Source of the DNA: Mesotaenium endlicherianum
Taxonomy: Eukaryota
Assembly: GCA_009602735.1 (NCBI GenBank)
Contig: WELA01000853.1
Coordinates: 143,217 to 176,191, forward strand
DNA: 32,975 nucleotides
Direction of reading: 5' to 3'
The notes under the pieces are model-generated. The model saw only the letters and a list, made by a program, of their open reading frames with translations. It did no database searches and was not told the origin of the DNA. The position numbers and the translations under genes are program-made. Numbering within the stretch: position 1 is the stretch's first letter; each line of letters starts with the position of its first letter. This document shows positions 8,714 through 32,469 of the stretch, piece after piece.

Positions 8714-9470
8714 TGAAAGGGGCAGAGTGCCGTAGTGGAAGCGTAGTATTTCACGAGGAAAGAAACTAGTTGCAATTATACTAAAAAGTGCAGCGGCATA
8801 TCACTAAGAAAGCTTAGGAAAAATACTCAACATTTTGAGTAGCAATAAATGCTCACAATGATGTTGGATGGAAGGCCTCGTCATTACAAACCCGTAGAAA
8901 TTTACAGAAGTGAAAATTTGATAAGAAACAAAGAAGTCATGCCTATTTATAGTTTTCTACGAGGGCCGCTCGCCCCTAGGCGAGAGGGCCGCTTAGCAAC
9001 GGATTTTCTTCAAATCGTGTTTGTCAAATCGTCCCTTCCAAAATATTTGTGAGAAAGCCAGATCAGTCTCATCTAACGTGTCGGGCCGATTTGACGTCCA
9101 CATGCATGCATCGAAATATATAGAATACACTAACTTAGACGCGCTAGGCTAATCCGAAACTTATAGGTAAATCGACCTAGTCGGCACTCTGCGTCAGCCA
9201 AACTTACGTGAAGGTTCGAATTCACTTTAACGGCCCAGATCGTTTGCATTGTCGGTCAATCCGACGGTCGCGCTCACCGCGAATTGAGGAAAGTCGTCAA
9301 CCGACCTCAAAATTAATTAAACTTCGGAAATCCATAACTCTCTCAATACTTAACCATATTCGATGAACATTATATCAAATTGACCACAAAAAAACACTCT
9401 ACACTTCTATCTAATCAAAACATACTTTTAAGGAACTCAAAAATGCACTTTGTACACCTATGACCTTACA
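8714..9470 (-). repeat. 3' LTR
   Basis: TGAAAGGGG...CCTTACA on + strand. Roughly 60 differences from 14812-15567 by manual count (about 92% identity). Confidence 0.97.
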
Positions 9471-10770
9471 TCATCCCCCTCCTCAAGATGCGACGTCCTC
9501 GACGCATTCTGCAGATAACGTCTCAACTTACTCTTACGATGTGTCAAGTTGGTCTTTGGCTCCCAAGTGTTGTCGTTCGTATGGTAGCCTTTCCACTTGA
9601 CTAGATACTCTTGAACAAATCGTTGACCTCGCTTGACTCGTCGATCGCCGACAATCGCCTCCACTTCATACTCCAATACATCGTCAATTTTGACCCGTGG
9701 TGGCGGTGTAGGTAGTCGTCCTGGATGTCCTTCATTTGGGTCAATGTATGGCTGCAAACAACTGACATGGAACACATCATGGATACGCCAACCTGAAGGA
9801 AGTTCCAACTTGTAGGTCACTGAATTAACCTGCTTGAGCACCACAAAGGGACCTGTGAATCGTGCTCGCAGTTTCCTTTTGCCCGTGAAAGGTAGATTCT
9901 CTATTGACAAGAGTACTTTGTCACCCACATGGAATGTCACTTCCCTCCTATGCTTGTTAGCATGCTTGACCTGCTCTTCCTGTGCCTTCCAAATACACGT
10001 CTTCGCCATATCCCAAGTGTTGGCCATCTGCTCCATAAAAGCTTGTGTAGTAGGAACCTGAGTTTCCTTGGCCTTCTCCAACAAGATGTTCCCTGGATGA
10101 TATACTTCTCTGCCATAAACTATAGCGAATGGTGACTGCTTGGTGGATCCCTGCATGCTGATGTTGTAGGCAAACTCCAATCCTGGCAGCTTCCTATCCC
10201 ACTTTGAAGGGTCTTCCATAGTGAAACTCCTGAGCACCTCTTGCAAAGTTCTGTTGAGTCTCTCACTCTGGTCGTCTGTCTGAGGATGATAGGAAGTGCT
10301 CATACTCAGCTTGGTCCCCATCAAAGTAAACAATGACCGCCAAAAGTTGCTAGTAAATCTTAGATCTCGGTCTGAAACAATCACCTTCGGCAACCCATGT
10401 AGCTTGAAAATATGATCAAATAATAGTCGTGCCACATCTGCTGCCGTACAAGTCTCCTTCATGGGAAAAAAGTGAGCCATCTTGCTGAGTCTATCAGATA
10501 CAACCCAAACTGCATCGTGCCCTTGACCACTCACTGGTAACGACGTGATGAAGTCCATAGCAATCTGCTCCCAAGGATACTCTGGAATAGGTAGGGGCTG
10601 CAATGTACCTCCCTTCTTTTGATTTGGTGTCTTGTTACGCTGGCAAGCATCTCAATTCCTGATCCACTCCTCAATGTCCTTGTCCATATTTCTCCAATAG
10701 TACTCCCGCTTCCGCACACTTGTCGTCTTTTTGCTTGCAAAGTGTCCAGCATATTAGCAGTCATGATGCT
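9458..10770 (-). pseudogene. Integrase with C-terminal chromodomain
   Basis: Core motifs PWEQIAMDFIT, IVSDRD, QSERLNRTLQE and TGPFVVL; chromodomain EYEVEAIVGDRR...YLVKWKGY...NTWEP. The upstream HHCC zinc-finger region (10640-10770) carries stop codons. Confidence 0.95.
9471..9484 (-). promoter_or_regulatory. Polypurine tract
   Basis: Minus strand GAGGAGGGGGATGA immediately precedes the 3' LTR. Confidence 0.9.
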
Positions 10771-11410
10771 CCGCAAGTAGTAAGTCTCGTAGCTCCTCGA
10801 TGTCAAGTACCACCACTCTCTTGGAATCACCATAATACCATATGCCGTCCTTTTTCTGCATACTCAAGTTGGACTCAGCTGCTCCACAATTAGCAAACTT
10901 TGGGTCCTCTTCATAACCTCTCTGAAGCTTCTCCTTGAAGTTCATACTCTCCTTGATGACTGAGACAGCTGCAAGGTCGCACCTCCTGGATAAAGCGTCT
11001 GCAGGGTTGATCTTCCCAGGTAAGTACTCAATCTTGTGGTTGAACTGTTGCAGAAACTCCATCCACCTTGCTTGTCTTGGTGTCAATGTTGGCTGCGTCA
11101 TAAACTTCTCCAAGCTCTTGTGGTCGGTCTTGATGAACACCTTCCGGCCGTCCACATAACATCGCCAAATCCTCAAAGCCTGGATAATAGCCAACATCTC
11201 CCGCTCGTGTGCTGCATAATTCTGCTCAGCAGGACTCAACTTCCTGCTCTCGTATGCCACAGATTGCAATCCTTTACCCTGGTCCTGGAGAAGAATGGCT
11301 CCCACTGTAAAGTTTGATGCGCCCGTGATGATGGTGAAAGGAAGCTCTGGACTGGCAATTGCCAACACAGGTGCCTGTGTCAACAGCTCCTTAATCTTCT
11401 CGAAGGCTTG
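10754..11410 (-). pseudogene. RNase H domain of pol
   Basis: TGASNFTVGAILLQ (canonical TDAS; the catalytic Asp is Gly here), AYESRKL, YAAHEREMLAI, TDHKSL, RQARW, NPADALSR. Confidence 0.93.
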
Positions 11411-12762
11411 CTACTCCTTGTCACCCCATAGCCACTTCTCCTGCTTCTTTAACATGTCCGTGAGCGATGCACACACCTTGGCAAATACTTCAATGAAGCG
11501 TCGATAATAATTCACCATGCCGAGGAAGCTCCTGAGTTGATGAATATAAGCAGGTACCGGCCAATTTCCGACTGCTTGCACCTTCTTCTGCTCCACCTTG
11601 ACTCCTTCAGCTCCCACTATGTGCCCAAGAAACTCGACTTCCTTGAGACAGAAGTCGCACGTGCTCATCTTCCCATATAACTTCTGATCTCTCAAGTCCT
11701 CCAACACCTTCCTCACATGCTCCACATGCTCTTCCAAGGTCTTCGAGTAGATCAAGACGTCGTCCAATAATACCACCACAAACTGGTCCAAATAGGGTCT
11801 GTAGATACTATTCATGAGTCCCATGAATGTAGCAGGTGCATTGATCAATCGAAAAGGCATGACTGTGAACTCAAACAAACCATAGCGAGTCCTGAAAGCA
11901 GTCTTCTGAACGTCTCCTTCCGCAATCCGTACCTGGTGATAGCCACTCCTCAAATCGATCTTCGAGAAGTACTTCGCCTCGACAAGCCTGTCAATTAACT
12001 CGTCCACTCGTGGAAGTGGGTACCTGTTCTTGATAGTGACCTTGTTGAGTGCCCGGTAGTCGACACACATCCTAATAGTTCCATCCTTCTTCTTCACAAA
12101 TAAGACTGGCGCTGCAAATGGAGACTCGCTGGGTCGGATGAATCCCTTCTCCAATAACTCCATCAGCTGCTTCTTCAACTCATCCAACTCCGCAAACGAT
12201 TGACGATAGGCGGGTCTCACTGGTGGCTTGCTCCCTGGTTCCAACTCGATCTTGTGCTCCGTAGCTCTCTGTGGAGGTAATCCTGCAAGTAGCTCCTCAG
12301 GAAAAACGCACTTGAACTCCTCCAACAGCGCCTTCATGTGGGCAGGCATCTCAGCAGGCTTCTTCTTCTCTTGAGTGGTTGGGCTCTGCTCCTTTTGAGC
12401 AAGGGGATCAGACACCGCTACTTGCTCCTCCGGCGATGTACATTTGCCCAAGCTGTTAGGATTCACGCTTGCTCCATCTGATGACCTGGCCAGGGCCATC
12501 GAAACAAGGTGCATCTCCTTCACCTGATTCGTCCTGCATAGCTTCTTAACTTGCAGGCTTGATAGAAAACAATTACTTGTGGTCGTATCTACCTCCACCT
12601 GTTTTGCTGTCTCCATTCGACCATCACGCCCTTGGACTTTCACTTGTCTTGTGCTCCAATGCACTTGGGGGTTGGCTTTTCTTAGCCATGGTCGACCCAA
12701 TATCACCTCATGATGACCCAACTCTGCCTGCTTCATAACTTCCTTACTCCGGTGCCCCGCTA
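11411..12762 (-). pseudogene. Protease C-terminus, linker and reverse transcriptase of pol
   Basis: [70 protein letters not shown]. An in-frame TAG at 11411-11413 separates it from RNase H. Confidence 0.96.
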
Positions 12763-13047
12763 CTTCACGTGAATAGCTTCCGTAGGTGCACCACACTTGA
12801 GTCTCTGCCCATTCACCAAAATTGCCTCCTTAGGCTCATAATGCTTCTGCACAGGGATTTGCCACTCTCTCACCAGCTTCTTGTGCACAAAATTTGCACT
12901 TGCGCCACTGTCGACCATACACTTCGCCTTGTTGCCGTCGACTACTCCTTCCACGATGATAGGCTTGTCAACATCTCGTCTTTCGCTTCTCGGCAGGCTC
13001 CTGGGGATAACCTCCTTGTAAGTTCTCGTCTTCTCGCCAGTAGACAC
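12760..13047 (-). pseudogene. Retropepsin aspartic protease of pol
   Basis: CMVDSGASANFV active-site motif. An apparent 1-nt deletion near 12762 shifts the frame ([11 protein letters not shown]). Confidence 0.92.
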
Positions 13048-13058
13048 CCCAGAACAAC

Positions 13059-14774
13059 TTACTGGCGTCCTCTTTTTTCATGCTGTTGAGGTTGCTTCGC
13101 CTTCACATGGCAGTATCGAGCCAAATGTCCATGAAAGGGAAGAGGGTGCGGAGAGTGCGCCCACACACACTCACGCACCCTCACCCGCGAGTGGAAGCGT
13201 GCACGAGGACCTTTCCTAGTTGCATACACTAGGTGGAGTGGCTTTGTGGTGTGCCACCCTTGCAAGAGAGAGAGAGTTACATGAGCGAGGAGTGGAAAAG
13301 AACTCACTTTATAAGAAAAGTTGTGTACAAGATACGAAGGTTAGACTAGAATGAGCTCTCTCTACTTCCTTGTGCTTCTCATTTATCCTTTAACTCTCAG
13401 TGTCCTCTCTAGCAAAGTATCTCCAGAACCTTCTACTATGGCTCCTTCCATGTAGATGACCTTGCCTAGTTGGACAAGCTAGCACACTCACACGCACACA
13501 ATCACACTCTAGAATATTCTACTACACAATCCACTAACCCCTCACGGAGTTTCTAGAAATTCCACGATCACTTTCGCACTCTACGTAATTGTACGTAGTT
13601 TCTGGAACCCTCATGTTTCAATGTCCTACTTCCTGGACTCCAACCGAAATTTACGTCACTGGACCTGTCCTTGTCACTAAATAGAATCCATGACATTAAA
13701 AACTCACTAAAAACTTCCAAAATTCATAACTTTCTCAATACTTGTCCAAATGACTTGAAATAAAGGCCAAAGTTCTTCTCAAATCACACTCTTTGCATAT
13801 AAAATACTAGAAAGATACAAACTACACTTTCATAACCTTACAGTCCAAGCTTGCCACAATTATAGCAGGGTCCTCTCGGCTTAAAATTCTGCGGCCTGCG
13901 CTGGTACTGAACAAGTCCCAACTCCATAGGTATTGGACCTTGAACACTCGTGCTTAGCGCTTGAGATCCAAAGTGTCGATATCCTCCAAAGTTGTGGCTG
14001 CCCCACTGCCTTTGACTATACTCCACAACGTCGACCCTTGTTGCCAATGCTATCATTTCTCCAAGATTGGTAGGGTCCTTGAGCGCCACTTCCTTGGCCA
14101 CAGTTGGCCGACTCGTGCATGGATGGACATTGAAGCACCATCTCGTTGAAGCGCGAAACATACTCGTGAACGCTTCCTCATTGACGAAGGCGCACCAATA
14201 GATCTCGAGCGGTAGCCTCGGGTGCAATAGGTTGAAATGGCCTTTTCAAGCCTTCAAAGAGCTGATCAATAGTAGCAGGAACTCTGGACAGCTGCTCCTC
14301 TCGCTCATACCAAGCTCCAGCTATCCTCTTCAACAAAATAATCACAAAGGCGACTTGCTTGTCGGATGTGAGCGCAGAATACTCCATAAATTTCTTCATA
14401 CCAAAAATCCATTGATGAACAGGCGGCGATCCACGCTCTCCAGTGTACACTTCAGGCTTAGGCGCACGCACTCCCGATGCGGGTGGAATAACTGGTTGCA
14501 CCACTGGGTTAACATGGATTGGTGGTACAACAGGTGCAGGTGCCGAACTTGTCGAAGGGACATTTCCAACAACAACTCGCACCATTCTCTCCACCTCCGC
14601 GCGCATGTTTTGTTGAAATTGGGCGTAGACTTCTCCTCTAATTGCATTTGCCATTTGCCTTAGCATCGCCTGCATCTCTTGTTGCTGTCTGGTCATTGTT
14701 GGTGCCACCTGCTGCCCCGCGCTCTCAACATGCTCGACATATTCGCCTCCTCCAGCTGCCGGTTGCGACTCCAT
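13059..14774 (-). pseudogene. gag, split by a solo LTR
   Basis: PKPEVYTG, AGAWYE, LRQ*GSVHEY (stop at 14178-14180), a frameshift/deletion near 14110, and GPIPMELG. The zinc knuckle CYNCGKLG|HLARYC is restored when 13132-13847 is removed. Confidence 0.93.
13132..13842 (-). mobile_element. Solo LTR of a related chromovirus family nested in gag
   Basis: 711 bp with TGAAAGGG...CCTTACA termini like the host LTRs. Perfect 5-bp TSD GTCCA (13127-13131, 13843-13847). Shares the cataact(t/c)tctcaatactt motif, but the interior is otherwise divergent. Confidence 0.93.
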
Positions 14775-14797
14775 AATATAATATGCAAACTAGCCCA

Positions 14798-19157: not shown

Positions 19158-19209
19158 TTTGTAACCTTCGGACGTTGACAACATTTGTAACCTTCGGACG
19201 TTGACAACA
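19158..19209 (+). repeat. Perfect 26-bp tandem duplication
   Basis: TTTGTAACCTTCGGACGTTGACAACA x2. Confidence 0.95.
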
Positions 19210-19788
19210 TTATAGGGAGAGTTGCACACCAGCTTGTCTGCAACTCTGTGGAATTAAGCTATGAAGGTGCTTGCGGGGGATACATGTTTGTACTAACACG
19301 AGATGTGGTCAAGGCATCCAAACATCTTTAGAGTCCCGAGGGCCGAAGGGTGGTACATCCATGGCCATCCATAGCCCCCTCGTGACACATGTACGGCCGC
19401 ATTAACCCTTGGGGCCAAGCACCACCACCACAATAAGGATAGCAATGAGCCCGCTGACTCTCTGAGCAGCAATGATTGACGGCATCAGAAGCTCTTTGAA
19501 GAAAGCTTAACCCCTTACCTTGTAATACCCACACCTCTCTCCTCCCCTCTTCCACCCACCCCCTCGGCGCGACCTGCTTGAAGAAGGCAAACATAGGGTT
19601 GCAAGGCCTTCAGAGAGACAAAAGAGCTTCATCTGTTGAACCCAAACAGACCCTCAAGAAATTCCTCGTTATCACAAGCTGCATGCAGACATAAGATTTA
19701 TGTTTTATCCTTATCTGCGCCCTCTCACATAACGACACCCACCCATTTTTCTCTCACACTCTCTCTCCAATCCCCCTTCATGCTGGCG

Positions 19789-22700
19789 CTAAGTGACGCC
19801 CAGTATCCATCCTTCTTCCATGATGACTTTCTCGACAGCGATTGCGTGTGTGATCATGTCGCCCCCTTGCTGTTGCTCTAGCTCATTCAGAGAATTCCTG
19901 TCAACTTGCGCTTGATTCTTGTGATGAGACTGACTGCTGCAGGCTTGCAGGCTAGCCAGGTGGCGGCCCTTGAAGGTGGGCCCCTGGAAGAGGGCGGCAA
20001 GGAGGCCGGCAGAGTCCAGCTTGGCGAAATGCATGGCCAGGGCTCTGACCTGTTCATTGAAAAAATGTGAAGGAGATGATCAGACTAAATCATGATTTAA
20101 CATGAACAGATGACACTTGCATGCCAGGTAGACGGAGTGAGAAGCTGAGTATATGTCATCAATCAATCACATGAACGTTCCCTTGCGCACATGCACAGGC
20201 CTGCACCAGGTTGGGCTTTCGGTTTGCTGGCACCTATTTACGATCACCCCCGCAAGTGCTGTGGGCAACTTGTGTTCCCCATAGGCATAGCATACGATTA
20301 AAGAAATCAGCACGAAGCGGCATGGTAGTGTGAGCACGAGCCGCATGCACGCAAACTCGATGCACGCCACTTTGAAGCGTATTAAGTCGTCCCAAAGAAG
20401 AGAACGAAGAAACGTTTCTCAGAAAGTCATTCAGGTACGAACTCAAATTGTACGCAAATGTCATATGCAGTGTCCATTTAGAGGGCCACATTATCAAAAA
20501 ATCATGCCACATGAATGCTAATCACTACTTCTCCAGGTAGGATGACAGGTGGCTCAGGTGAGGTGTGCCACCTGGCCGGCGTCTTTGGGCTCTCCCGGGC
20601 GGCAGTCGGGCGGGATTAGCGACGGATACACCTGCTCCCCAGGGATCACCCCACTCTCCCATGCCCACCAGAGAACGTAGTGTGCGCGTCTTGTGAGGGA
20701 GAACCCAGGGCGAGCATGTGACCACGCATGGAAGGAGCAGAGGGTGCACAAGGCCGAGCGGGTATTCGAGCGAGGATGACGAGGACGCATGATCGAGCAC
20801 TTGCCTTCTCGTGAAGACGATCAACGCTGGCATGCAAGCTACCCTTTCAGACTTAGGGGGGTGGGGTTTTGAGCTTTGGGACAAGCAGGGCCGGCTCGAA
20901 GCCTAGGGCTGCACACTTTGCACGGCCTATCCACGATCTACATCCCTCACGCCCTGACAGCTGGCACCCAGGAGTTCGATGCCAAAGGTCTCGTGGGCTC
21001 AACAGCAAGACGAACGGTGGGCCTTACCCTAAGCCTGACACCCGCAACCCTAAGCCCGACCAAAACCCTAAGACTCCATACGCCCCTGCAAGAACTAACG
21101 CCGGAATTAAGAAAGAGCAGAGCTGACGGATAGCTTTGCTTCATTCAGAGTCCCGGAATTTACGCGCATGCGTGTCTACATCCTGGTAGCCCTAGGCCTC
21201 CTCTGATGTCCGCACTCCAAAGAAGAGAGGATACTACCGCACGCATGCTGTCGCCAATTGTCGGCATGTGTGGCACCAGGTGAGGGGCGGCGCACGTGGC
21301 GCCACTCCCTGCAAACAGCCACTTGGCGCCACTTGGAGCTACCTGGTGCTACCTGGCAGCGCCATCTGGACCGGGGAATGTAGGGGTTGAATTCGTCAGG
21401 AGCTGACGCAGAGGACTCACCTCAGCGAAAATGATTTGCGCCTCCCTCCCCGGCCCCTCCTGGCCCTCCAGGTGGCCTCCTGCGGGCGTGACAGGTGGCG
21501 CACAGAGAGGGGCCCTCAGGCCGGTCTCGTAGGGCCACACGAGCGAGCACCGGCGCAGGTGGGGGTGGTCTCTCAGCTGCCGGACTCGGGGGATGCCGAG
21601 CAGACTCTGCATGCGCAGGAGGAGGGGGAGGAAGAAAACGAGCACGTGAAAACTTGGCGGGAGCGTGTGTACTTGATCAATCGGAGCTAAAAAGGGAGAC
21701 TTGGAGGGGGCGAACAGTGTGTGGATTTGTACAACTCACGAACCCCTTTCGCCCAACGAGACACATGGCACAGAATGGTGGGAGCATCACACATGCGTCA
21801 CGCGCATGAGTGCCGCCTCCGGGAGGCGAGAGTCTGCTTTCTCACGCGCGGCACTGTCCAAGCTCCGCAGAAGGCAGGAGGCAGGGGTGAGAAGGAAAGG
21901 GGGAAGGAGGGGCTCCCTTGCTCTCACGGGCAGGCCGCACATGCCATGGGAGTTCTCTACAGGTGCGATACTCGTTTGCTGCGCTCGCTCCAGAGAAGGG
22001 GTGGTCAACTCATTCTTTCAAGAAGGTGAAGTTATCCTCTCTAGTAGAATGAACGCCCTACGGCCCCTCCCTCTGCGTTTTCCACCTGCCCGCATACTCC
22101 CTGCCAACAGCCAGAGGTGGAGGGCACACCTGACCGGAGAAACAGAAGGGTACCTGAAAGCTGAGGTGCCCGTCAAAAAATGCACCTGGGTGTCGTGACA
22201 GGGGGTTCACATCTGGGTCGAGCAACAGACGGGCGCCTGTATGGGTGCAGGTGCAACAGAAGGGCACCTGACCTGACCTGGGAGCCCACAGAGCCAGTGG
22301 TGAAGAGCTTCCAGGTGGAGTGTGCCCCGCACCTCTCCTCTGCCAGCCGCCTCTCCGCCAGACGTGGGGACCATTCGACGCCCCTCGGATCCTGGGGAGG
22401 GGGCTTTGTCATGGTGAGAAAAGGGCCCACTTTTCCCTTGGGGCACCCCCAGAAGGGATATGCGCCGCCCGAAATCTGCCATGGCACCACTGAGCAGAAA
22501 GTTCAGCTCTGTCGATGAGCACTGTCTCTTTATCTCGGCCTTGGGTTGCAGCTGGAAATACGGACTTATGGTCATACGGACATGGGGAGGGACGCCAGAG
22601 GATGTGTAATAAGAGTAATGAAAAACTCGACGCGACCACGCGGACACAGATACAAACATAGTCGTAGGTAGGCAGGCAGGCAGGCGGGGAGGGAGGGAGG

Positions 22701-24607
22701 GAGGGAGGACGAGAGGGAGGGATGCAGAGATGGAGGGCGGGCGGGCGGGTGCTAGCACAGACCAGCGCGTTCATGCCAGCCGCCGCTTCGAAGCGGTTGT
22801 TCTCGTTGGCTGGCCCGTCTCGGACAACGGCCGACAAGTAGCCCCACACCTTGCGCCACGCGCCGTCCCCTCCTCCTGCTGCGGCTGCTGCTGCTTCTGG
22901 TTGACCACCCCGACCTCCCCCATGACTGAGCTCGCCTTCTCGACCTCCCTGCAGACTCGGTTGCCCACCTTGACCTCCCCTTTGACCACGTGGGAGTGGA
23001 CCATTTTTTAGGCCCAAATCATCGGGTTGACCCCGTTGACCTCTGCGTTGACCAAGCCCACTTGCTGGCAGCCTCTCCCCACCATCACCTGCAGTCTCTG
23101 CCCCGTCCTCATCCACCTGGCGTCTGCTACAGCGCGCCACGTCGTTCTCCTCCTCCTCTGTCTCCTCCGGCCCACGTCCATCATGATCCGAAACTCGAAC
23201 TCCCACATTTAACCCTAACCCTAATCCTGAACCTAAAACTAGAGGCTCCTGGGCCTCCCCTCCGGAGCCCACCCTCCCTCTGTGCGCACCTGGCCCCCCC
23301 CCCCCTAGCAGAGCCTGGGCAAAGCCTGCTGGGAACCCAAGGGAGAAGTCAAACCCCATGAGCACCCTGCGCCGCTGGCCTCTTTCACGTTGACCTTCTT
23401 GACTAGGACCCTCTTGCTCACGCTCACGCTGCCTTTGACTTTGACCCCGACTTTGACTTTGACCCCGACTTTGACTTTGACCTTGAGTCTGCCGTTGACT
23501 TGGCCCGTGCCCTCCCCGACGAGCTGCGTCATCATTGTCCTCGTCACCGTCGTCACCTTCGTCGTGACCACAATTGGCGCCCCCACCGCCACCGCCGTCA
23601 AGACCACCATGGAGATGGTCAGGGGCATCTATCCCCCCACGCACGGCCTCGCACGCCAGCTGGCACAGCTCGGCCTCTGCCTGCGCCCTAGTTGCCACAT
23701 TGCGCACACACCGTATCGACAAGTGGCCAGATGCTACCGAGATTGTCGGGACGTCCGGCCCGGCAACTCCAAGGCTGGGCTTTGCGTTGCTTCCAGTTGA
23801 CCTCCTGTTGACCTCCTGTTGACTGCCTGTTGACCCGCCTGTTGACCCAGGGCCTGTGGACGTGAGGTTGCTTGCGCGACACGACTCAGGCACATCATCA
23901 GCATCATCATCATCAGCAGCACCACCACCACCTATCACGTGGCACCACCTATCTTGTGCTGCCCACGAATGTCGATCCGTGGTTGATGGCCCGTGACGGC
24001 TTTCTTCTGCCAGATTGCGGTGCATTTCTGTTAACAGGTGGCAGCTCTCTTCTGCTGACACGTGGCGGTCCACCACGCAGTACCAAATGCTATCCTTGCC
24101 TGTCCGTGGGGTGCTTGCGCCAGACCAGTCCACCACCACATATGTGTCAAACAGAGGCAGCTTGACACCCGAGGGTGCACTCACGGTCAGCCCTGTTGAC
24201 CTGGTTGACCTGGTTGAACGGAGCAGAGGCTTGCCAGCTTTGCTGAAACTGGCACGAGAGGCCTTCTCTACTGAAGGACTTTCTGCAGAGACACCCTGAG
24301 GTGATAAATGACACCTTGTTGACCTGTTTGATGCCTGTCTGCCATCTGTTTGACCTCTTTGAACTGGCTGACCTCCATCTATTTCACTTTTGTTCTGGAA
24401 TGACCTCCTTCTGGGACTGGCGGTACTTTGGAGGGGCGTGGTTACTTCAGGTCTCCTACTACTGGACCTGGTGACAGTTTGCACAGGGACATGCTGATAC
24501 AATCCCGCTTCCTGGGGTTTTTCTTCTGCAATAGATGACGTCCTTAATTTTACACACCTCCTCGTTTCATATTCACGAGCACTGTTGCATTGCCCCTTCC
24601 GTTTCAT
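19789..24607 (-). CDS. Five-exon gene encoding a bacterial-type DUF429-like RNase H-fold predicted nuclease with long low-complexity insertions (about 849 aa from ATG 24607; alternative ATG 24685)
   Basis: Exons 24607-22763, 22475-22278, 21606-21421, 20631-20572 and 20049-19789. All four introns are GT-AG and phase 0, and the joined frame is open. Motifs in order: FDTYVVVDWSGA...DSIW, NVATRAQAE, VLMGFDFSLGFPAGFA, WRKVW...NNRFE, PFWG, RRLAE, WKLFTTGSVGSQ|SLLGIP, VWPYETG, FAE|VYPS, KDAGQ|VRALA, EEGWILG. Confidence 0.9.
23433..23482 (-). repeat. 18-bp coding minisatellite (GQSQSR repeats)
   Basis: CTTTGACTTTGACCCCGA x about 2.8 on + strand. Confidence 0.9.
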
Positions 24608-25929
24608 TTCCGCTTGCCTTACGCACAGTAGAGTTGGAAAACGATGGAGGAAGGAATACTTCAAGGTCGTCATACATATCAACATATTGCGTGCAACATA
24701 TTGAAAAGGTCAAGAAGCTCGCTTTCAAGTACAAGAATCTTAGTCAGTAGCTGATGGAAGGGTGGACCGGCAGAGGGCGTTGCCCGCTGCTTTTTAGTTG
24801 TTCGTCTGAAATACAAATTTCGTGGGGTACTTGATCAAGGCACTCTTGGTATAGTAATCAGGAAGAGCCTCATCTATCCCTTGTCCATACTTAATCGCGC
24901 CTACGCTCTAGCAATTCTCGCCGGAACTGTAGTTATCCTAACGAAACAATACAACAAGCAAGCTGCATCAGTGCCGTTGTGGAACAATGGCACTTCCTGT
25001 GATAGTCCAGCTTTTAATTAGTCCTGTTGGCCATGTTGAGCTTGCGTTGCACCAGTTGCTCCTGACCTGCTTTGTAACGTAGTGTGCTTTGCGTGTCCGA
25101 AGTCCAGCGTCGCTGCCTATTCCACTCTGTTTGGTGCAGACCAGTACAGACAGTCAACCATGGTCAGGAGTTAGGCATTATCCTTTAATCAGTCAACTCT
25201 ATGGTCCACATGCCGTCGTTGCTTCAATAGTGTCAAAAAAACAAATGTAATATTCAGGCTTTAAAACTTGAATTCAAAAACTTTTGGTGAAAAAGAAGAA
25301 TGAAGCAAGAAGAGCTGTATTGAAAAGCCAAAGATATGTAGATGGTGCAAGCAATGGGTAAGCTTTTTACAATTCTTATGGCTAGCCATTGGATGGCTTC
25401 TTGCCTCTCCACAAAGCTCAAGCATATCCTGCTGCATTTGCTTTTCCATTCTCGCATCCTACTCCCCACACTCTCAATCGCTACATTTGAGATGGTTTCC
25501 TAATGAGATGCATACCCATGTAGTTACTTTTATAATACGTCTTTCAATTTTTTTTCAACGTCATCAATTGTCACCATATTTGTGATTGCATCATCCACTA
25601 TTTTGGCTTTAGATCATGCTCGAATACGTCACCTCATACGCTTGAGCTTGTCTTGGCAAAACGCCTAACCTATGGGTAGGGTGGAATGCAGGCTTTGATT
25701 AAAAGGCTTAAGGACCCGCTATTCATGGCATTCAACTTCTTCTTATATAACTAGGCCAACACATGGTCTAAAGATGTAGAGCACATGAGTTGGAGCCTAG
25801 AACGACTTCATGCAGTTGTGAAGGACACGCTCTGGAGAAGGATAGGCACTTAGTTTGCCAGTCATATATAATATTTGGTTCTTGCTCATGTCATCAAAAT
25901 TGCCCTATTTCTTTCTTACTATGATCGTT

Positions 25930-26840
25930 CATGGACCTATGCATGCAAGTGCTGGACAGTTTCTTCAAATGTTTAGTGGTTCATTATTTTTAATGTGAGG
26001 GGGTGCATTCAGCTATTGGAGGCACTAAATTGTTCAAGTAATTATATTATGCTCTAGGATTTGTCCTTGAGTGGCCAACACCTAGATGAATTCGTTAAGA
26101 AGTTCAGACCAACACCACAAATTTCTTTTATACATTACATGAAAGGTTTCCAAATAAGGAAACTTGGCAAGAAGTTTGGTAGCAATGATCCGTTTAGCAT
26201 AGTAATATGACATGTACATATTTCAGCTGCACGTTCTGTATTTTGATTTTTTTTTGGCCTTAATATTGAGACCCCTCGAGCTAATAAGCCATGAAGGATT
26301 TGCCACTTTATGCCACATGGCATAGCAAAGTAGTATGTCAATTAAATTGCTCCGCACAATCTTTTACAGTGGCCTCATGTGTGGAGTACAACATTTACAG
26401 CCTCCAATGTGCAATTCCAAAATTTCTTAACATGAAAGGTGACAGGCGGAAGGAAAGAGAAGGTTACCAAGATTGTGACCCTACAATAGTAGCCGTCAAT
26501 ATGGATAGAATAGCATGACGTACAGCATGCGAAGAATCCAACATTCATATTTTTGCGACTAGCACGCTAAGAAAAGTCAAATTTAGTCATAAGGTAGTCG
26601 ACTTTGGCTACCCGCAACAAGACGTTATTTACAAGACTTTGGTCTGTGTCTAGAGGTGAGAGGGCTGAGATTCACCAGAATACCTATAGAGCAGATAAAT
26701 CACCTGCAAAATACCATGTAAAGCTGGCAGACTTTGGACAAGCTGTCTATCTAGAGGAAGGCGAGAAAATGGATGGGCCATGCGGTTCTCTTTACTATCT
26801 GGCTCCAGAGCAATTACAGGGTAAGGAGTATGGCTTTGAA
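25930..26840 (+). pseudogene. Decayed Ser/Thr protein kinase relic(s), CAMK/CDPK-PEPRK-like
   Basis: Well-preserved subdomains VII-VIII, VKLADFGQAVYLEEGEKMDGPCGSLYYLAPEQLQGKEYG (26718-26834), truncated before subdomain IX. Weaker upstream remnants are TYACK (about 25936-25950), CIQLLEALNCSSNYIML*DL (about 26004-26063) and KVVDFG (26591-26608). No HRD motif is intact. Confidence 0.7.
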
Positions 26841-27047
26841 ACAATAATCATTCAAAAGAACCCCCAACCAAAAAGAGGAGTCTGTCAAAAAGTCGAGTCG
26901 CGTGGCAATCTGTTTTGCGTAACGGCTCTTCAATGGAAAATGCTGACGCTTCCAATAGTTCATCAAAACTTTGTCATACGATGCATACACAGCTGTAACC
27001 CGTAAAAGAATGTAAGACCAACATATATGGCTGCATCTTCTGTGATG

Positions 27048-30000
27048 CTATAGTAGACAACTGGCCAGCAAAATGCTGACAATTGATGCCAATACCGCAG
27101 CCATGGACGAAACAGGTAGTCTGTGAGAGGCAGCGGGTGAGCCGACAACTATGCTCACGTTCACGTTGGAGTTTGTGCCTTGCGCGTGTATTGTGCCTGT
27201 GGAGCCTGCAGACAGACGGGCAGACGAGATGAACTTAAGACGTAGTGAAGATCATGCTTCGGCAAAGAGCACAACTACTGTTGTACGCTAGAGAGTCATC
27301 AACAGCATGTCAACATCTTTTGACAGAACCCACAGAATACCTAACAGTATGTCACCACACCATCTTTTGACTCAGCCCATACAATACCTGTACATAAGTA
27401 ATGGTGCGACTGCTATCGACAAGGGAAAGTTTGGCCAGAACTCCGGGAGAAACATGAGCCCTATACAGGTGCACGCTGCTCAACTGAAGCAGAAAGCCTT
27501 GAAGGCACCACATCATGCATGCCTCAGCGTTTAGAGTCCAAAACAAGCAGCCGTGCACTATTCGCGCGCAACCGCACACCCAGAGGCACAAATGCGCGTG
27601 CTCCCCCACACGCATGCACGCACAGACACACACACACACACACACACGCGCGCGCATTCACACGCGCACAGACGCGCACGGACAAGAAAATGCAGCACAT
27701 TCAGGAGGAAAGGGAAAGCTCTGTTGGTGGCCACTCACAGTCAAAGTCCATCCACCCGATGGAAGCGTCCGCGGGGTCAAACACCATGAGCTTGTCGCGC
27801 ATGATGATGTCTGCAGAGAAACAAACAGCACCTTTTCCCTGAGGAGGGGGGGTTGTTCCCACTGTCGTAAACCCAGGCAGAAGGGAGCATTCCAGTCTCC
27901 ACATCACCGACTCGGGCCTACTAGCATAACGAGTTCCCTCTCACGTATTGAGATGATTTGAGTGCGAGTCCTGAGCTCGGATTCCGGGGGCAGAGCAGCC
28001 AGATGTCGTAAGAGGGAGACCCACACTTGCGCGCACGCCACGCATACAAGCACACGTGTGGGGCTCAAGCCATCAGCACACTCAGTACTGTACTGATCCC
28101 CACGCATGTACAGACAGTCTTCCACAATTCACCCGACAATGACGGGAAGGAAGCATAAGGTATTTGCAGCATGTCACATGGTGCCTCCAGCCGTCACCTG
28201 TGGTATTACATTGACATAATATGCCCAGGCAGATATACTTAAGCGCGCAACATATTCATAGAAAAATTGATGTCTTAGAGCATGCGCATGCGTGCTTATG
28301 CACGTGATGCATGCATCACACTGACCTGATTGGACTTCTTGTCCAGGCATATGCAAGCGCAAATCACTTGTCGTGGAGGAGGTGCGCAGCTGCAGCACTC
28401 ACTCCCAGTCATGACAAGTCAGCATGGCTGCTGACTGGTTAACGTTTGAAACAGGCTGACATGTGGATACATGCGAACAAGGAAAGGTACCTCCGATGAT
28501 GGAGAGGGAGGAGGTCGACCCTGCTTGACCCGACGAGTCCCACCCGATGCACGCGGCCAACGATCCCGAGCCCTGTTTACACCAGACACTCGCCACACAC
28601 ACACGCACAGGTCATCACACAGTCACACAGGCAACACCCCACACACACATATACACACACAGTCCATCATGCAGTCACGCAGACACACGCGCACAAGCAC
28701 ACACACACGCACAAAGGTCATGACAGTCACAGAGACACCACCCACAGACACGCGCACGTACGCACACGCACACACACATGCGCGCGCGCACGCAAAGACA
28801 AACGCAAACACACACGCGCGCGCACAACACACATTCACACACATCACTTAGTGGCCCAGAAACAGCATACAGTCCATCACGACAAGCAAAGCACACACGT
28901 GTGCGCAGACCCTTGCAAGAAGGCAAGAGTGCCTGCATGTAGAGTCAGAATTCAACTTCAAACCTCACATACAGCACAGTCTCAAGGGGGAGGAGATGAA
29001 AAAGGCACGTACGCTGGAAAGGAGCATGATGTAATTCTCCGGGCCCAAATCCATATCCGCCCCATCGAATTTTAACGTCACGTTTGGAAAATGGTCCGAC
29101 AAATCCTCTGGCGAGCTGGAGTCACATCCCGAAGAAGAAAAACAAAGGACATAGAAAGTACTGAATTTTGTACGCATCAACTCTCACGCATATGCAGAGG
29201 AATTGTCGCCTCAATGTACGCATACATACACACACTTTCTCATATATACAGAGACATAAGTGTGCGTCCACGAATATGAGGACGTACACAAGTATGCCTC
29301 CGCACGAGAGTGTGCCCTCATACGTGCAGCAACAATGCATGAGCACCAGCACAACTAAACAGCAGGGGGTGCACGAATGCGTACACACGCACACACGCAC
29401 ACGTGCGCACACACGAACACCCACACACGCTGCGCACGCATGAAAGAAGCACGGCCTCGGGGCACTAGGGAGCCTAAAATTCTTGGGAGCAGGACATCTC
29501 TAAGGAAGCAAGGACATCTGGGTGGGAATGGGGGTGGCGGTGGGGGTGGGGGCGCGTACCGCCCAGAGGAGTCGAGCAGCAGTGCGCGCACGTTGTCCGT
29601 GTGCCCGCGCAGCTTCATCTGCTTCTGGCCCGAGCGCGCATCCCACACCCTCACAGCCTTCTCCGTGCCACCGGACACGATAACGGTGGCAGCGTCGTTC
29701 ATGGCCAGCGCATACACGGACTCCTTGTGCCCCTTCACGGCCACGGGTGTCCTACTGTGTCCACCTGCTGCTGCTGCTGCTGCTGCTGGTGGTGGTGGTG
29801 GTGGGGCTGGCACCGACAGCGGCTCATCGGCTGCAGCATGCGAGTCCAGAGTGCAGCTCAGGGGCGCCATGGCCCGGGCCACGTCCCACAGGTACAGCTC
29901 ACATCCCAATCCCGCGGACGCCAGCACGCTCGTCTGCCCGCCCGCCACATACTCCCCAGCAAATATCAGATGTCCCGCATGACAGACTCTGCTGTGTACA

Positions 30001-31920
30001 TGTGGCTTAAGCTTGGGCTCGGGTTGGGAGGGCGGCAGGAACCCAAGCAGCACCTGAGAGGAGGCGGCCAGGCAGGTGANGGGGGGGGAGGTGTCAGGCC
30101 CCAGGTGAATGGGGGACGAGGGGGGGGAGGAGAAGGGACGAGGGAAAAGGGAAGCCGAGCTAAGAGGGATTAGTGGTGATCAAAATGTCCAAGAAGCCGC
30201 AAGCATATGATTGGTGCAAACAATGGTTGGTGAAGCCCGCACGTTGTTGGCGCCCCTGGCTTGTAGCAGCGCGTCACAAAGTCAAGTAGGGGGGCCAGGG
30301 CGTACGGATCGTAAGTACTTGTGTGATTGCATTATGTGGCTAATGCATATTATGTGACAGAGACTAAGAGCTGACTGCAGCCCACTACCGCCGGTAACAC
30401 AGACAGGTGAGGGGAAGCTCCGCTGGGGCGGGGGAGGTAGAGGAGGGAGGGCCAGGAGGAGGAGGAGGAGGAGGAGGAGGAGGAGGAGGAGCAGGAGCAG
30501 GAGCAGGAGCAGGAGAAGTGGCACTCCTTGACGGAGCAAGGGGCCAGCCGCCTGGGTGGCGCAAGCATGCAGGCCTGCATGGCACCTGGCGCTTCCACAG
30601 ATATCATGGCGCTCATGATGACGATACAACCGCATATGTGTGCGTGAATATCTGGCAACAAGAGAAAAGCAAAACCCCGCCCTTACTCCATCCCCTTTTT
30701 TTGCCTCTCGCCTTCAACCCCTTGCCACCTGGCGGCGATCCACTTGACTAAATCTGGACCCCTCTCCTCCCCCCCTTCCCCCCCCTGAAAAACGCGTCCT
30801 TTCCTCCCCCTCGCTACTCCAGGCGTGCATCCGCGCGCACACGCACACGCACACGCACGCGCACACGTACACGCCCACGCACACGCGCACACGCACACGC
30901 ACACTACTCACGCCACAAAAACCTGTGTTGCAGCTCAAGACCTGACTGTGAACCCTGCCCCCCAAAACCCCTGACTCAACGCTTGGGCGCACAAGCCTGC
31001 GTAAACCAGGCGCCCCACACATCGCCAACCCTAGCCCTGGCCCACATCACATCTGAGCTTTACCCGCAACCCTGCGCGTGCAAAAGGTGGGCACACTAGT
31101 TCCCCAAGGCCACATAGCCCCCACTTGGCCCCCACCCTCCCCTACCCTCCCCTGCCCTCCCCTGGCCTGGAGCCACAAGCCATCTGAAAGGGGCAGGTTT
31201 GGAAAATAGTAACACAGGAATGACCGACAACGAGATTCCCCGACAGGAATGGCCGCGCCAATTGTGAGTAAGTCAACATCAGGTCTTACTCTCGACCCCA
31301 CCCGCCGCCTTCCCTCCTCTGCCTTTGTCTACCCCCCGAGTCCATGAGGGGGTTGAGAGGAGAAGGAGAATGAGAGGGAGGGTGCCTGGTTCCCCTCACA
31401 CGCACAACAGAGTGGACTTTCCACGAGTTCCCCTCCTCCCCGGCGACGCCACCTTTTCACCCTCTTCTCCCTCCCCCTCCTCTCCCCCCCCCNGGGGATG
31501 AAAGAACCCACCTCGGCTTGCCACGCTGTCATCACGTCGTGCGGCCACAGCGACAGCGTGGTCCCGCTGTCAAACAGCACGCCCGACCGGTCGGCCGGCT
31601 TCCCGAAGCTGGATGCATCGACACCTGGCACCGCCTCGCCGCCCACGCTGATGCCGTCCAGCTGTGCAAAGTAATACGTGTACCCGTTGCCGTCGAGCAT
31701 GGGCGTTGTGCGCAACGAGTTGTTGGTGTTCGTCACCTTGCCCAGGAGCAGGGTACCACCGCCCGCCTCCTCGCCGCCCAGGCAGTGGGCGAACGCTCCC
31801 GTGGACGCCCCGAGGGCCGCCAGCTGGCTGACGAGCGAGAGGGGGCCGCGGCCGAGGCCCATGAGGCCGTCCACAAGCTGACCGCTCGTCAGCAGGTCCT
31901 CGCTCTGGTTGAAGCCGCAC
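27048..31920 (-). CDS. 3' part of a GPI-anchored pepsin-family (A1, plant atypical; A36/A39-like) aspartic protease; 5' exons not found in the window; possibly disrupted
   Basis: Phase-compatible GT-AG exons: 31920-31512 ([25 protein letters not shown]), 30651-30243 (interrupted), 29115-29013 (FPNVTLKF...PENY), 28572-28491 (CIGW...SIIG), 27810-27739 ([12 protein letters not shown]...IGWMDFDC) and 27205-27048 (ending in the hydrophobic tail [18 protein letters not shown]). Confidence 0.9.
28590..28845 (+). repeat. Degenerate (CA)/(CG) intronic microsatellite tract
   Basis: Alternating purine-pyrimidine low-complexity run; similar tracts occur at 27607-27680, 29380-29440 and 30832-30903. Confidence 0.9.
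29560..29946 (-). pseudogene. WDR48: Orphan exon fragment of a WDR48/LRS1-type WD40 gene within a protease intron
   Basis: [15 protein letters not shown]...[14 protein letters not shown]...[13 protein letters not shown]...[20 protein letters not shown] matches plant WDR48 as I recall it. It ends at a GT donor (29559). No preceding or following WDR48 exons were seen in the window. Confidence 0.85.
30326..30636. mobile_element. 311-bp insertion splitting a protease exon
   Basis: Flanked by TGTGTG at 30320-30325 and 30637-30642. Removal restores [30 protein letters not shown] between a phase-0 acceptor and a phase-2 donor. Contains (GGA)12(GCAGGA)4. Confidence 0.55.
30455..30514 (+). repeat. 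(GGA)n/(GCAGGA)n microsatellite
   Basis: Seen directly in the sequence. Confidence 0.95.
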
Positions 31921-32469
31921 CTGGTCAACCGGAGGCCGGAGGAGTCAAAGCCGGTCAGATAGGGTCAACGGCGGGAGGACCAGGGGCCAAAGCTGGTCAG
32001 GCGCAGGTCCAGAATATAGTCAGGTGGTTTTCTGGAAAAAAAACAAAGTCAACTATTCGAGGCAGGACATGTTAGACCCGGTCAAAGGAGGTCAGACGCA
32101 GTCAACGATGGTCAGACCCAGCCCTGTGGCATGGCACTAATGCGGCCGTGGCCCCGAGCTGGCCAGACACGGCGAGGTGGCCAACGTAAGTACAGCAGGA
32201 GAAAGAAGAAGCACTTCACGTCCGCCAGCAGATTCGGGCGTTGGAGAAATAAAAGGCAGCGGTCATCACACGCGAGACACGGAATACGGCTTGCCAACGA
32301 GCTGGAGAGGAGAGCAGCAGACCTCCGCGGCACAACAGTGGGAGTTGGAAGGATATAGGTGAGGAAGAAAGCATATCGTGCACAGGCATGTGCGGTCCGT
32401 GTCTGACTAAACCTGAATGAGTGAACCCCTTGGAACATTTGAATATTACAAACGAAGTCAGAAATCCAT

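Follow-up and report, generated by a model that had tools for sequence, protein, structure and literature searches.

Structure of the locus

The window analysed here is a stretch of 32,975 nucleotides of the Mesotaenium endlicherianum assembly (contig WELA01000853.1), and its minus strand carries, from 24607 to 19789, what is almost certainly a real gene. Five exons, each with a length divisible by three, join into a frame of 849 amino acids with a lone stop at its end, and the four introns (287, 671, 789 and 522 nt) are of the GT..AG type and in phase 0 throughout. The features, in the order of transcription, are as follows.

22763..24607, minus strand: exon 1, 615 codons counted from the ATG at 24607
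24128..24130, minus strand: D160 in the VDWS motif; its bacterial counterpart is D11, where strand 1 of the model ends; predicted to be catalytic
23348..23350, minus strand: D420 in the GFDF motif; its bacterial counterpart is D75, which directly follows strand 70-74; predicted to be catalytic
22476..22762, minus strand: intron 1, 287 nt, GTCTGT..CAG, phase 0
22278..22475, minus strand: exon 2, 66 aa, with YPFWGCP, ERR and WKLFTTGSVGSQ, motifs that belong to the insert specific to the family
21607..22277, minus strand: intron 2, 671 nt, GT..AG, phase 0
22154..22277, minus strand: alternative extension of exon 2, 124 nt, with a donor at 22153 and a skip of 547 nt
21421..21606, minus strand: exon 3, 62 aa, with SLLGIP, WPYETG and IFAE; the last codon is E743 (21423-21421)
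20632..21420, minus strand: intron 3, 789 nt, GTGAGT..CAG, phase 0
20572..20631, minus strand: exon 4, 20 aa, VYPS to KDAGQ; D760 at 20583-20581
20050..20571, minus strand: intron 4, 522 nt, GT..AG, phase 0
19789..20049, minus strand: exon 5, 86 aa and TAG, VRALA to EEGWILG; E842 at 19815-19813
19566..19788 at least, minus strand: 3' untranslated region, from X2 contig 19566-20052

Exon 1 begins with 150 amino acids rich in S, R and T, followed by the VDWS, RNVATR, GFDFSLGFP and NNRF blocks, with three stretches of low complexity (about 112, 85 and 141 aa) inserted between them. The position of the start codon is not fixed, because the frame is open upstream to 24709 and contains in-frame ATGs at 24685, 24673 and 24607. 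All 14 motifs searched for were found at the expected places in the spliced protein, and three splice junctions interrupt motifs (GSQ|SLLGIP, FAE|VYPS and DAGQ|VRALA). As a control on splicing, 30 open-frame GT-AG combinations, the chosen one included (4, 17, 7 and 2 per junction), were scored with the family HMM, and the choice made in the preliminary description had the top score at all four junctions.

Transcripts

RNA evidence came from three raw-read runs, of which 6-24% each were sampled, and from X2 contigs (one run, kind unrecorded). Splicing of intron 1 was seen in nine reads (two of the three raw runs), of intron 2 in three reads (one run), of intron 3 in seven (two runs) and of intron 4 in eight (all three runs); X2 contigs also span all four, that over intron 2 at a depth of 24.3. 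The intron-bearing gene proposed from the letters alone is thus seen spliced in RNA at every junction, and read orientation in two stranded runs indicates transcription from the minus strand. At intron 2 the junction from the donor at 22153 was also found, in seven reads from two of the three raw runs and in an X2 contig at a depth of 11.3, against 24.3 for the full intron. The isoform with the 124-nt extension reaches a stop at 22175 after 715 aa, so that E743, D760 and E842 would go missing, and among raw reads this unproductive junction outnumbers the productive one (seven to three). Raw-read depth is near zero over 23140-23326, yet one X2 contig is continuous over 22763-23319 with no joint listed; exon 1 is also covered by X2 contig 23453-25000.

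Membership in a bacterial family

The core of the algal protein shares 40-52% identity with members of a large bacterial family, which corresponds to the C-terminal part of NCBIfam PRK14495 (NF011066), annotated there as "unknown domain", and for which there is no Pfam model. A family HMM built from five bacterial sequences matched the algal protein with E = 1.2e-81 over positions 2-294 of 297, in five pieces, and of the 88 columns that at least 90% of 241 bacterial proteins conserve, the algal sequence has 76; two of the missed columns (N44 and T47) reflect an alignment slip at an insert. Together these results bear out the bacterial core claimed in the preliminary description. Five acidic residues (D11, D75, E232, D249 and E291) are invariant across 70 bacterial proteins, and alignment confirmed the further claim that all of them are retained, as D160, D420, E743, D760 and E842, respectively. 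Judged from the alignment and the model, the five algal inserts appear to lie between predicted secondary-structure elements. Pfam searches with the five raw algal ORFs gave nothing relevant, and exon 1 had no Pfam match at all.

A second algal member is the Klebsormidium nitens protein GAQ85358.1 (KFL_002310140), which is 55% identical to that of M. endlicherianum over about 257 columns. Its inserts follow the same motifs, and the wordings FDFSLGF and EPKDAGQV are common to both algae, whereas the insert sequences themselves are unrelated. As annotated it has 439 aa, and because it starts right after VDWS and ends ahead of EEGWILG, the gene model is probably incomplete. Matches to the NF011066 profile cover positions of about 167-441 in bacterial relatives and in the K. 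nitens protein (E = 1e-69 to 7e-28). The full equivalog, a MobB fusion with a cut-off above 596 bits, does not describe these proteins, since the relatives reach 98-235 bits and only over the C-terminal half.

The family comprises at least 4352 near-length matches and at least 647 longer ones (2187 representatives), and all 80 genome loci retained were bacterial. It is richest in Alphaproteobacteria, though patchy there, being carried by 29 of 301 evenly drawn genomes. A search with exon 2 recovered five bacterial proteins among 74 candidates and is uninformative on absence, because it missed the K. nitens protein itself.

Fusions, operons and database labels

CbiC is present in all of the best 120 of the at least 647 longer relatives. 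A scan of 43 bacterial representatives that were longer or unusual found CbiC in 16, CbiG_C in three, and TP_methylase, MoeA, MobA-like, CobU and aldolase II domains in one each; operons of the order mobA-mobB-[family domain + moeA] are also present. Within 5 kb of the gene, 58 of the 80 top loci have cob genes, with cbiX upstream in 49, cbiC in 50 and a separate true cbiG in 28. The figure of 58 is biased to one clade, because in the even sample of 29 carriers cob genes are neighbours in only 12 and Moco genes in one, 13 in all, and the other 16 have neither; several of the regions compared reach contig ends.

Across the 301 genomes, CbiC co-occurs with the family in 20 of 29 carriers against 74 of 272 others (Fisher p = 2e-5, in a test that makes no correction for genome size, completeness or kinship), and CobS in 23 of 29 against 108 of 272. 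Six of the 29 carriers have neither, and only 20 of the 94 genomes with CbiC bear the family.

The database labels "cobalamin biosynthesis protein CbiG" and "molybdopterin guanine dinucleotide synthesis" attached to these proteins most likely come from such true fusions and operons with CbiC, CobE/CbiG_C, CobU, MobA, MobB and MoeA. The preliminary description was right to set them aside as enzyme names, but they mirror real genetic associations, and these fusions and operons are the best functional clue found. Identity with CbiG or MobB itself was rejected: the domain has no CbiG Pfam match, and a separate cbiG stands in the loci counted above.

Predicted fold

A predicted model of a bacterial member (pLDDT 93.7, for the bacterial protein and not the algal one) has three strands, a helix, strand 4, strand 5 and a C-terminal helix, an order that would place it in the RNase H-like fold on the RuvC/YqgF side; for K. 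nitens, a model made from the one sequence was of no use (pLDDT 37.4). In a structure search the top 50 rows were almost entirely RNase H-like, at middling Z scores of 5.2-7.6 and rmsd 3-8. Nucleases or proteins derived from them head the list (Cas12i RuvC, Z 7.6; Tex, 7.2; terminase, 7.0; RuvC, 6.8), and small-molecule enzymes stand just behind (pantothenate kinase, 6.2; Ppx/GppA, 6.0), all of them near-tied. Foldseek against PDB and viral models returned nothing at E <= 0.001, the same RNase H-like families leading; a sequence search of PDB gave a sole match at E = 0.15, and no solved structure of the family was found. The RNase H-like fold anticipated in the preliminary description is therefore supported, as far as a predicted bacterial model and its top structural matches allow.

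Membership in DUF429 was not supported. PF04250 (cut-off 23 bits) matched none of 70 bacterial members, even at E <= 0.5, and none of the five ORFs of the algal locus. It also found nothing in five carrier genomes, and its two matches in five further ones were other genes. Profile-profile comparison with hhalign aligned the strand-4 motif alone (15-18 columns, probability 1.5-4.6%, with a DUF429 alignment of only 15 rows), and in global mode the real score of 3.0 fell inside the range of 20 block-shuffled controls (-1 to 17).

Proposed function

Our tentative reading is that the algal protein is a metal-dependent RNase H/RuvC-like hydrolase acting on a nucleotide-bearing cofactor; its gene was likely acquired once, from a bacterium, early in the streptophytes. 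The predicted enzyme would split a phosphoester bond not in DNA or RNA but in a small cofactor or intermediate that bears a nucleotide; the metal would be held by D160, D420, E743 and D760, and the substrate may be of the corrinoid or molybdopterin-dinucleotide type. That the substrate is a cofactor at all is a suggestion drawn from the bacterial gene associations and put forward with corresponding caution.

Eukaryotes are not known to synthesise B12, so the alga would not need the domain for making it. Retention of the complete acidic site in two distant algae unable to make B12 suggests that the domain works without the biosynthetic pathway, and a role in salvage or clean-up may be envisaged. 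Algal retention in this way limits what a family with thousands of mislabelled members is likely to do.

A more specific proposal, which we consider speculative and rather unlikely, is that streptophyte algae gained from bacteria an RNase H-fold cobamide phosphoesterase that takes the nucleotide loop or the lower ligand off B12 variants. The algal protein is a candidate for the lower-ligand removal step of algal B12 remodelling. One study reports METH across streptophyte algae, including Klebsormidiaceae (10.1101/2023.06.07.544158), and another states that no CbiZ was found in Chlamydomonas (10.64898/2026.08.07.738727). If this proposal were true, these algae could salvage or remodel bacterial corrinoids without CbiZ, the gene would have been lost as land plants abandoned B12, and the enzyme would account for an unassigned step in the cob and Moco operons of Alphaproteobacteria.

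A true nuclease is a close rival of the cofactor hydrolase, though we regard it as the less probable of the two. In this reading, which the preliminary description had proposed, gene and origin are the same, but the protein belongs to the RuvC/YqgF side and would cut nucleic acids, whether to process RNA, to repair or to defend; its place in the cofactor operons would be a lineage-specific lodging. RuvC-type nucleases do lead the structural matches, and on the model the acidic residues fall on strands 1, 4 and 5 and on the helix after strand 5, an arrangement that fits the pattern of RuvC. The 16 carriers without cob or Moco neighbours fit a nuclease as well, as do four carriers in which the gene is convergent with one of the PolyA_pol/CCA type, and the tails of two members (P0262 and P0384) that carry an RxxxxH motif of HEPN-like appearance by eye. 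So does DUF429, which PMC3985635 assigns to clade D of the RNase H-like superfamily and predicts to be a nuclease. Against this, the domain is repeatedly fused to at least six different cofactor-pathway domains, and the roughly 150 conserved residues inserted between strands 4 and 5 have no equivalent in the short resolvases. The HEPN-like tails match no HEPN model, PADLOC models match none of 15 proteins, the family occurs on only two viral contigs, and the proteins carry little net charge (median +2, range -14 to +25), which is weak evidence.

It is unlikely that the domain is a non-catalytic carrier or a metal or cofactor chaperone of the CobE/MobB kind, handing on a tetrapyrrole or nucleotide cofactor, with acidic residues that bind metal or substrate without turnover. 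Accessory proteins (CbiG_C/CobE and MobB) are among the fusion partners, the upstream cbiX and the MoeA fusion are links to metal insertion, and nuclease-inactive RNase H-like folds (Tex, Spt6, TEFM and the MutS connector) are among the top structural rows; however, five acidic residues invariant in 70 proteins and kept in the alga fit a catalytic site better.

Origin of the algal gene

Two quick trees, of 98 and 76 rows, were made with a selection from 390 proteins and the loci; four of 148 bacterial representatives were left out as partial, and 40 lower-ranked ones were drawn at random. In both trees the K. nitens protein is the sister of the M. endlicherianum protein (SH-aLRT 96 and 99), and the eukaryotic copies, two sequences only, form one clade among bacteria. 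The clade nearest to this pair has an SH-aLRT of 80-90 and contains different bacterial neighbours in each tree. Among the best 150 of 2187 representatives, 15 of which were looked up by name, the K. nitens protein was the one eukaryotic member recognised besides that of M. endlicherianum, and it too is from a streptophyte. More eukaryotic copies may exist, because K. nitens (242.9 bits) lies only just within those best 150, the lowest of which has 242.5 bits. FDFSLGF was rejected as a eukaryote-specific marker: it had one match among the fetched proteins, whereas 20 of 68 metagenome loci matching it were family genes, all with uninterrupted bacterial-type frames, and none was eukaryotic.

The algal gene was thus probably transferred from bacteria, as the preliminary description had proposed and as the Klebsormidium sister in both trees supports. 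The sister position of the two algal proteins points to one early streptophyte acquisition, and in direction and timing the transfer would have run into early streptophyte algae. The gene has spliceosomal introns, is transcribed and lies among eukaryotic neighbours of the host type, as expected of a domesticated transfer.

Descent from an older mitochondrial, plastid or ancestral eukaryotic copy, lost in most eukaryotes, is decidedly improbable. Alphaproteobacteria, in which the family is most abundant, are the source group of mitochondria, and our view is limited to the best 150 of 2187 representatives. However, the one eukaryote among the matches listed there (15 of 150 looked up by name) is a streptophyte, the family genes among the metagenome matches all have unbroken bacterial-type frames, the family is patchy even within Alphaproteobacteria, and Synechococcus elongatus, one of 14 control genomes and a single cyanobacterium, has no NF011066 match. 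Bacterial contamination, misassembly or a decaying pseudogene, which the low read depth, the near-empty stretch in exon 1 and the abundant stop-carrying isoform might suggest, is scarcely credible in view of four spliceosomal introns spliced in RNA, stranded reads from the minus strand, an unbroken frame with its conserved residues, eukaryotic neighbours and a sister sequence in a second alga, which agree with the earlier argument from introns and neighbours.

Comparison with known systems

Early streptophytes are known to have taken up bacterial genes, and Cheng 2019 and Ma 2022 are reported to have surveyed those of streptophyte algae; the present case would be of the same type, a bacterial gene bearing introns in an early streptophyte. 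A literature search returned no paper on the bacterial family or the algal gene, and supplementary lists of horizontal transfers may include the family.

For the proposed cobamide chemistry the nearest parallels are two cobamide-remodelling enzymes, CbiZ and one of Akkermansia (PMC7733943). The likeness to CbiZ and to the Akkermansia enzyme, CbiR, would lie in the hypothetical job only, hydrolysis at the cobamide nucleotide loop.

DUF429 (PF04250; COG2410/COG4328/COG4923) shares the fold neighbourhood of RuvC, YqgF and Tex, and by eye its D-x-P strand-4 motif, E-x-[YH]-P and D-A motifs are similar to those of the family. In contrast to this, the family has about 300 aa and NNRF, PFWG and WKL motifs that are absent from the DUF429 alignment, and its fusions are to cofactor-pathway domains, whereas the partners of DUF429 reported in PMC3985635 are NUDIX or RelA/SpoT. 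CbiG (cobalt-precorrin-5A hydrolase; PF11760/PF11761/PF01890) has operons in common with the family, as well as the CbiG_C fusions in three of 43 members, but neither the algal ORFs nor the bacterial family core match a CbiG_N, mid or C domain.

The PRK14495 C-terminal domain family has a motif series that recurs in the algal protein. The latter differs in having no MobB, CbiC or other partner, in its eukaryotic host and four introns, and in being about 550 residues longer through an N-terminal extension and five low-complexity inserts.

Gene structure and transcription

As the preliminary description had proposed, five exons join into one spliced gene, with an open frame of 849 codons plus one stop and four phase-0 introns (287, 671, 789 and 522 nt), each bounded by GT and AG.

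Features of the gene and its surroundings in the window (neighbours assigned by Pfam)
24607-22763, minus strand, exon 1
22475-22278, minus strand, exon 2
22154-22277, minus strand, alternative extension of exon 2 (donor at 22153, 124 nt added)
21606-21421, minus strand, exon 3
20631-20572, minus strand, exon 4
20049-19789, minus strand, exon 5
9458-14789, minus strand, chromodomain Ty3/gypsy-type retroelement; its gag-like, RT, integrase, Tf2 SH3 and chromodomain pieces are spread over several frames
26598-27005, plus strand, isolated protein kinase fragment
29355-30179, minus strand, WD40 repeat exon (unknown bases in the window here)
31329-31964, minus strand, plant-type aspartic protease exon, TAXi_N/Asp (unknown bases in the window here)

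All 14 of the motifs searched are placed as expected in the product, and the splice choice made earlier scored highest at all four junctions when 30 open-frame GT-AG combinations near them were compared. Mapping of RNA-seq made splicing visible at each junction, both in raw reads of three runs with the same species label (9, 3, 7 and 8 reads across introns 1 to 4, respectively) and in contigs of a fourth run, with 6–24% of each run read and a low depth. Almost all first mates in the two stranded runs map to the plus strand, a pattern that in most libraries indicates minus-strand RNA. The second donor of exon 2 was found in 7 reads, and its isoform ends at a stop after 715 aa and lacks three of the conserved acidic residues; a sizeable share of the transcripts is thus unproductive, and the stop-carrying isoform may represent regulation through decay.

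Candidate start codons are located at 24685, 24673 and 24607, and a contig extends past 25000. Raw-read depth is near zero at 23140-23326, and one contig spans 22763-23319 unbroken, with no joint listed. Just downstream of the gene, a 26-bp stretch was recognized by eye as a head-to-tail repeat (about 19158-19209). Judged by the Pfam neighbours, the DNA of the window is eukaryotic and of the plant lineage. Together with the phylogeny described below, these neighbours suggest a streptophyte alga.

Family membership, predicted fold and putative active site

A search with exon 2 retrieved bacterial proteins of about 300 aa (48–53% identity). They contain no Pfam domain, and their sole match is to the C-terminal half of NCBIfam PRK14495, 'MobB/unknown domain fusion'. 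The family comprises at least 4352 near-length and at least 647 longer proteins; at 50% identity it falls into 2187 clusters. Against the family HMM, the window protein aligns over the entire domain (E = 1.2e-81). With 241 bacterial proteins it shares 40–52% identity in the aligned columns, and 76 of the 88 near-invariant columns are preserved in it, among them D160, D420, E743, D760 and E842, so that the putative catalytic acidic residues had rightly been described as retained. Its extra 550 residues consist of an N-terminal stretch of 150 aa rich in S, R and T (net charge +17) and of five inserts rich in G, Q, S and E, which our own mapping places in loops of the bacterial model.

This AlphaFold model was built for P0001, a bacterial member (70-row alignment; pLDDT 93.7, pTM 0.92). 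The RNase H-like fold suggested before was recovered on it: the structural matches were RNase H-like domains nearly throughout, including Cas12i RuvC (Z = 7.6), Tex (7.2), herpes terminase (7.0), Spt6 (7.0) and RuvC (6.8), together with the small-molecule enzymes pantothenate kinase (6.2) and Ppx/GppA (6.0). No structural match reached Z = 8, and Foldseek returned nothing at E ≤ 0.001. In the bacterial model, D11, D75, E232 and D249 (D160, D420, E743 and D760 of the window protein) lie where strands 1, 4 and 5 end, or just beyond, and where the next helix begins. RuvC-type enzymes carry metal ligands at such positions, and the placement, compared by secondary-structure position alone, would fit a RuvC-type metal site. 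Strands 4 and 5 are separated by a conserved insert of some 150 aa, which carries NNRF, PFWG, ERR and WKL motifs.

The narrower assignment to DUF429 was not borne out, as none of 70 family members matches its HMM and profile-profile comparison gave a probability of 1.5–4.6%. The fold is consistent with the RNase H-like clade to which PMC3985635 assigns DUF429, and the family is best regarded as an RNase H-like family in its own right.

Gene contexts in bacteria

The best 120 of at least 647 longer relatives are all fused to CbiC/CobH. In 43 bacterial representatives that are longer or odd, the partner domains were CbiC (16), CbiG_C (3) and, once each, TP_methylase, CobU, MoeA, a MobA-like domain and aldolase II; Pfam gave no match for 19. 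Both database labels, CbiG and molybdopterin guanine dinucleotide synthesis, most probably stem from such fusions. The family domain is not CbiG itself, because 28 of the 80 best genome loci contain a true cbiG as a separate gene. In 58 of these 80, cob genes lie no more than 5 kb away, typically in the order cbiX, family gene, cbiC, and Roseobacter-type loci show the order fdhD-mobA-mobB-[domain+moeA].

The spread of the family is patchy (29 of 301 evenly drawn Alphaproteobacteria). CbiC was found in 20 of the 29 carriers versus 74 of the 272 others (p = 2e-5, ignoring kinship, genome size and completeness), and CobS in 23 versus 108; six carriers lack both, and of 94 CbiC genomes only 20 possess the family. 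The neighbourhoods of the 29 carriers were cob in 12, Moco in one and neither in 16, where the neighbours are mixed and include, in four genomes (loci L183, L184, L185 and L187), a convergent PolyA_pol/CCA-type gene. The cob link is real but looser in this sample than among the best loci, and the loose co-occurrence and mixed neighbourhoods indicate an accessory domain and not a required biosynthetic step.

A 558-aa membrane-type gene (L027:8009-9682 and 16 similar loci) was found inside 17 of the 80 loci, in most of which it lies between cbiE/T and cbiL of a cob operon; it is glycosyltransferase-like by eye, with no Pfam match at E ≤ 1e-5. Two family proteins (P0262 and P0384) have C-terminal tails with an RxxxxH motif that resembles HEPN by eye, and four others (P0278, P0287, P0290 and P0308) have a common N-terminal domain of about 110–130 aa; neither the tails nor this domain has a name in Pfam, NCBIfam or PADLOC. 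An intact family gene also exists on two viral-collection contigs (L168:2661-3554 and L169:129-1022), without cob or Moco neighbours.

Proposed function

Because the invariant acidic cluster is located on an RNase H-like core, we propose that the domain may perform metal-dependent phosphoester hydrolysis. The cobalamin and Moco pathways both handle nucleotide-bearing cofactors with a guanylyl-transfer step (CobU, MobA), fusions of the domain to the enzymes responsible (CobU, MobA-like) occur, and the conserved insert might seal a pocket for a small molecule. We tentatively prefer salvage or clean-up of a nucleotide-bearing cofactor. With RuvC among the structural matches and cofactor enzymes among the fusion partners, a nuclease acting on nucleic acids is a close, slightly less likely alternative. 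A non-catalytic carrier, with the pathway fusions on one side and the invariant acidic residues on the other, appears improbable. The domain stands alone in the window protein, and to our knowledge eukaryotes do not make B12. Two studies report METH in Klebsormidiaceae, Zygnematophyceae, Charophyceae and hornworts (10.1101/2023.06.07.544158), and remodelling of pseudocobalamin by some algae, with CbiZ not found in Chlamydomonas (10.64898/2026.08.07.738727). That the domain is a cobamide-remodelling enzyme would be an improbable reading.

Origin and comparison with known transfers

Among the best 150 of 2187 representatives, 15 of which were looked up by name, one is eukaryotic: Klebsormidium nitens KFL_002310140, with a bit score of 242.9 against a listing floor of 242.5. 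The window protein would score 361.6 bits, yet is absent among the matches listed, and thus is not itself one of these representatives. The K. nitens protein is its best phmmer match among 390 proteins (55% identity), and the two are sisters with SH-aLRT supports of 96 (LG+G4, 98 rows) and 99 (LG+C20, 76 rows). Its inserts are placed after the same motifs as in the window protein. As annotated (GAQ85358.1), it differs in lacking the first (VDWS) and last (EEGWILG) motifs, and its gene model is probably incomplete.

Most of the family is alphaproteobacterial; further members occur in Acidobacteriota, Actinomycetota and others, and profile NF011066 found no match in one cyanobacterial control genome (Synechococcus elongatus). 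The bacterium-to-streptophyte transfer put forward in the preliminary description is favoured by the introns and transcription, the bacterial family and the sister relationship in two trees; the preliminary interpretation as a whole is partly supported. On the sequence comparisons, the simplest reading would be a single acquisition predating the split of the two algal lineages. A literature search outside the principal surveys of plant HGT and their supplements turned up no publication on either the family or its algal copy. In short, both the family and its branch in eukaryotes appear to be undescribed, and the kind of event, entry of a bacterial gene into early streptophytes, is already known.
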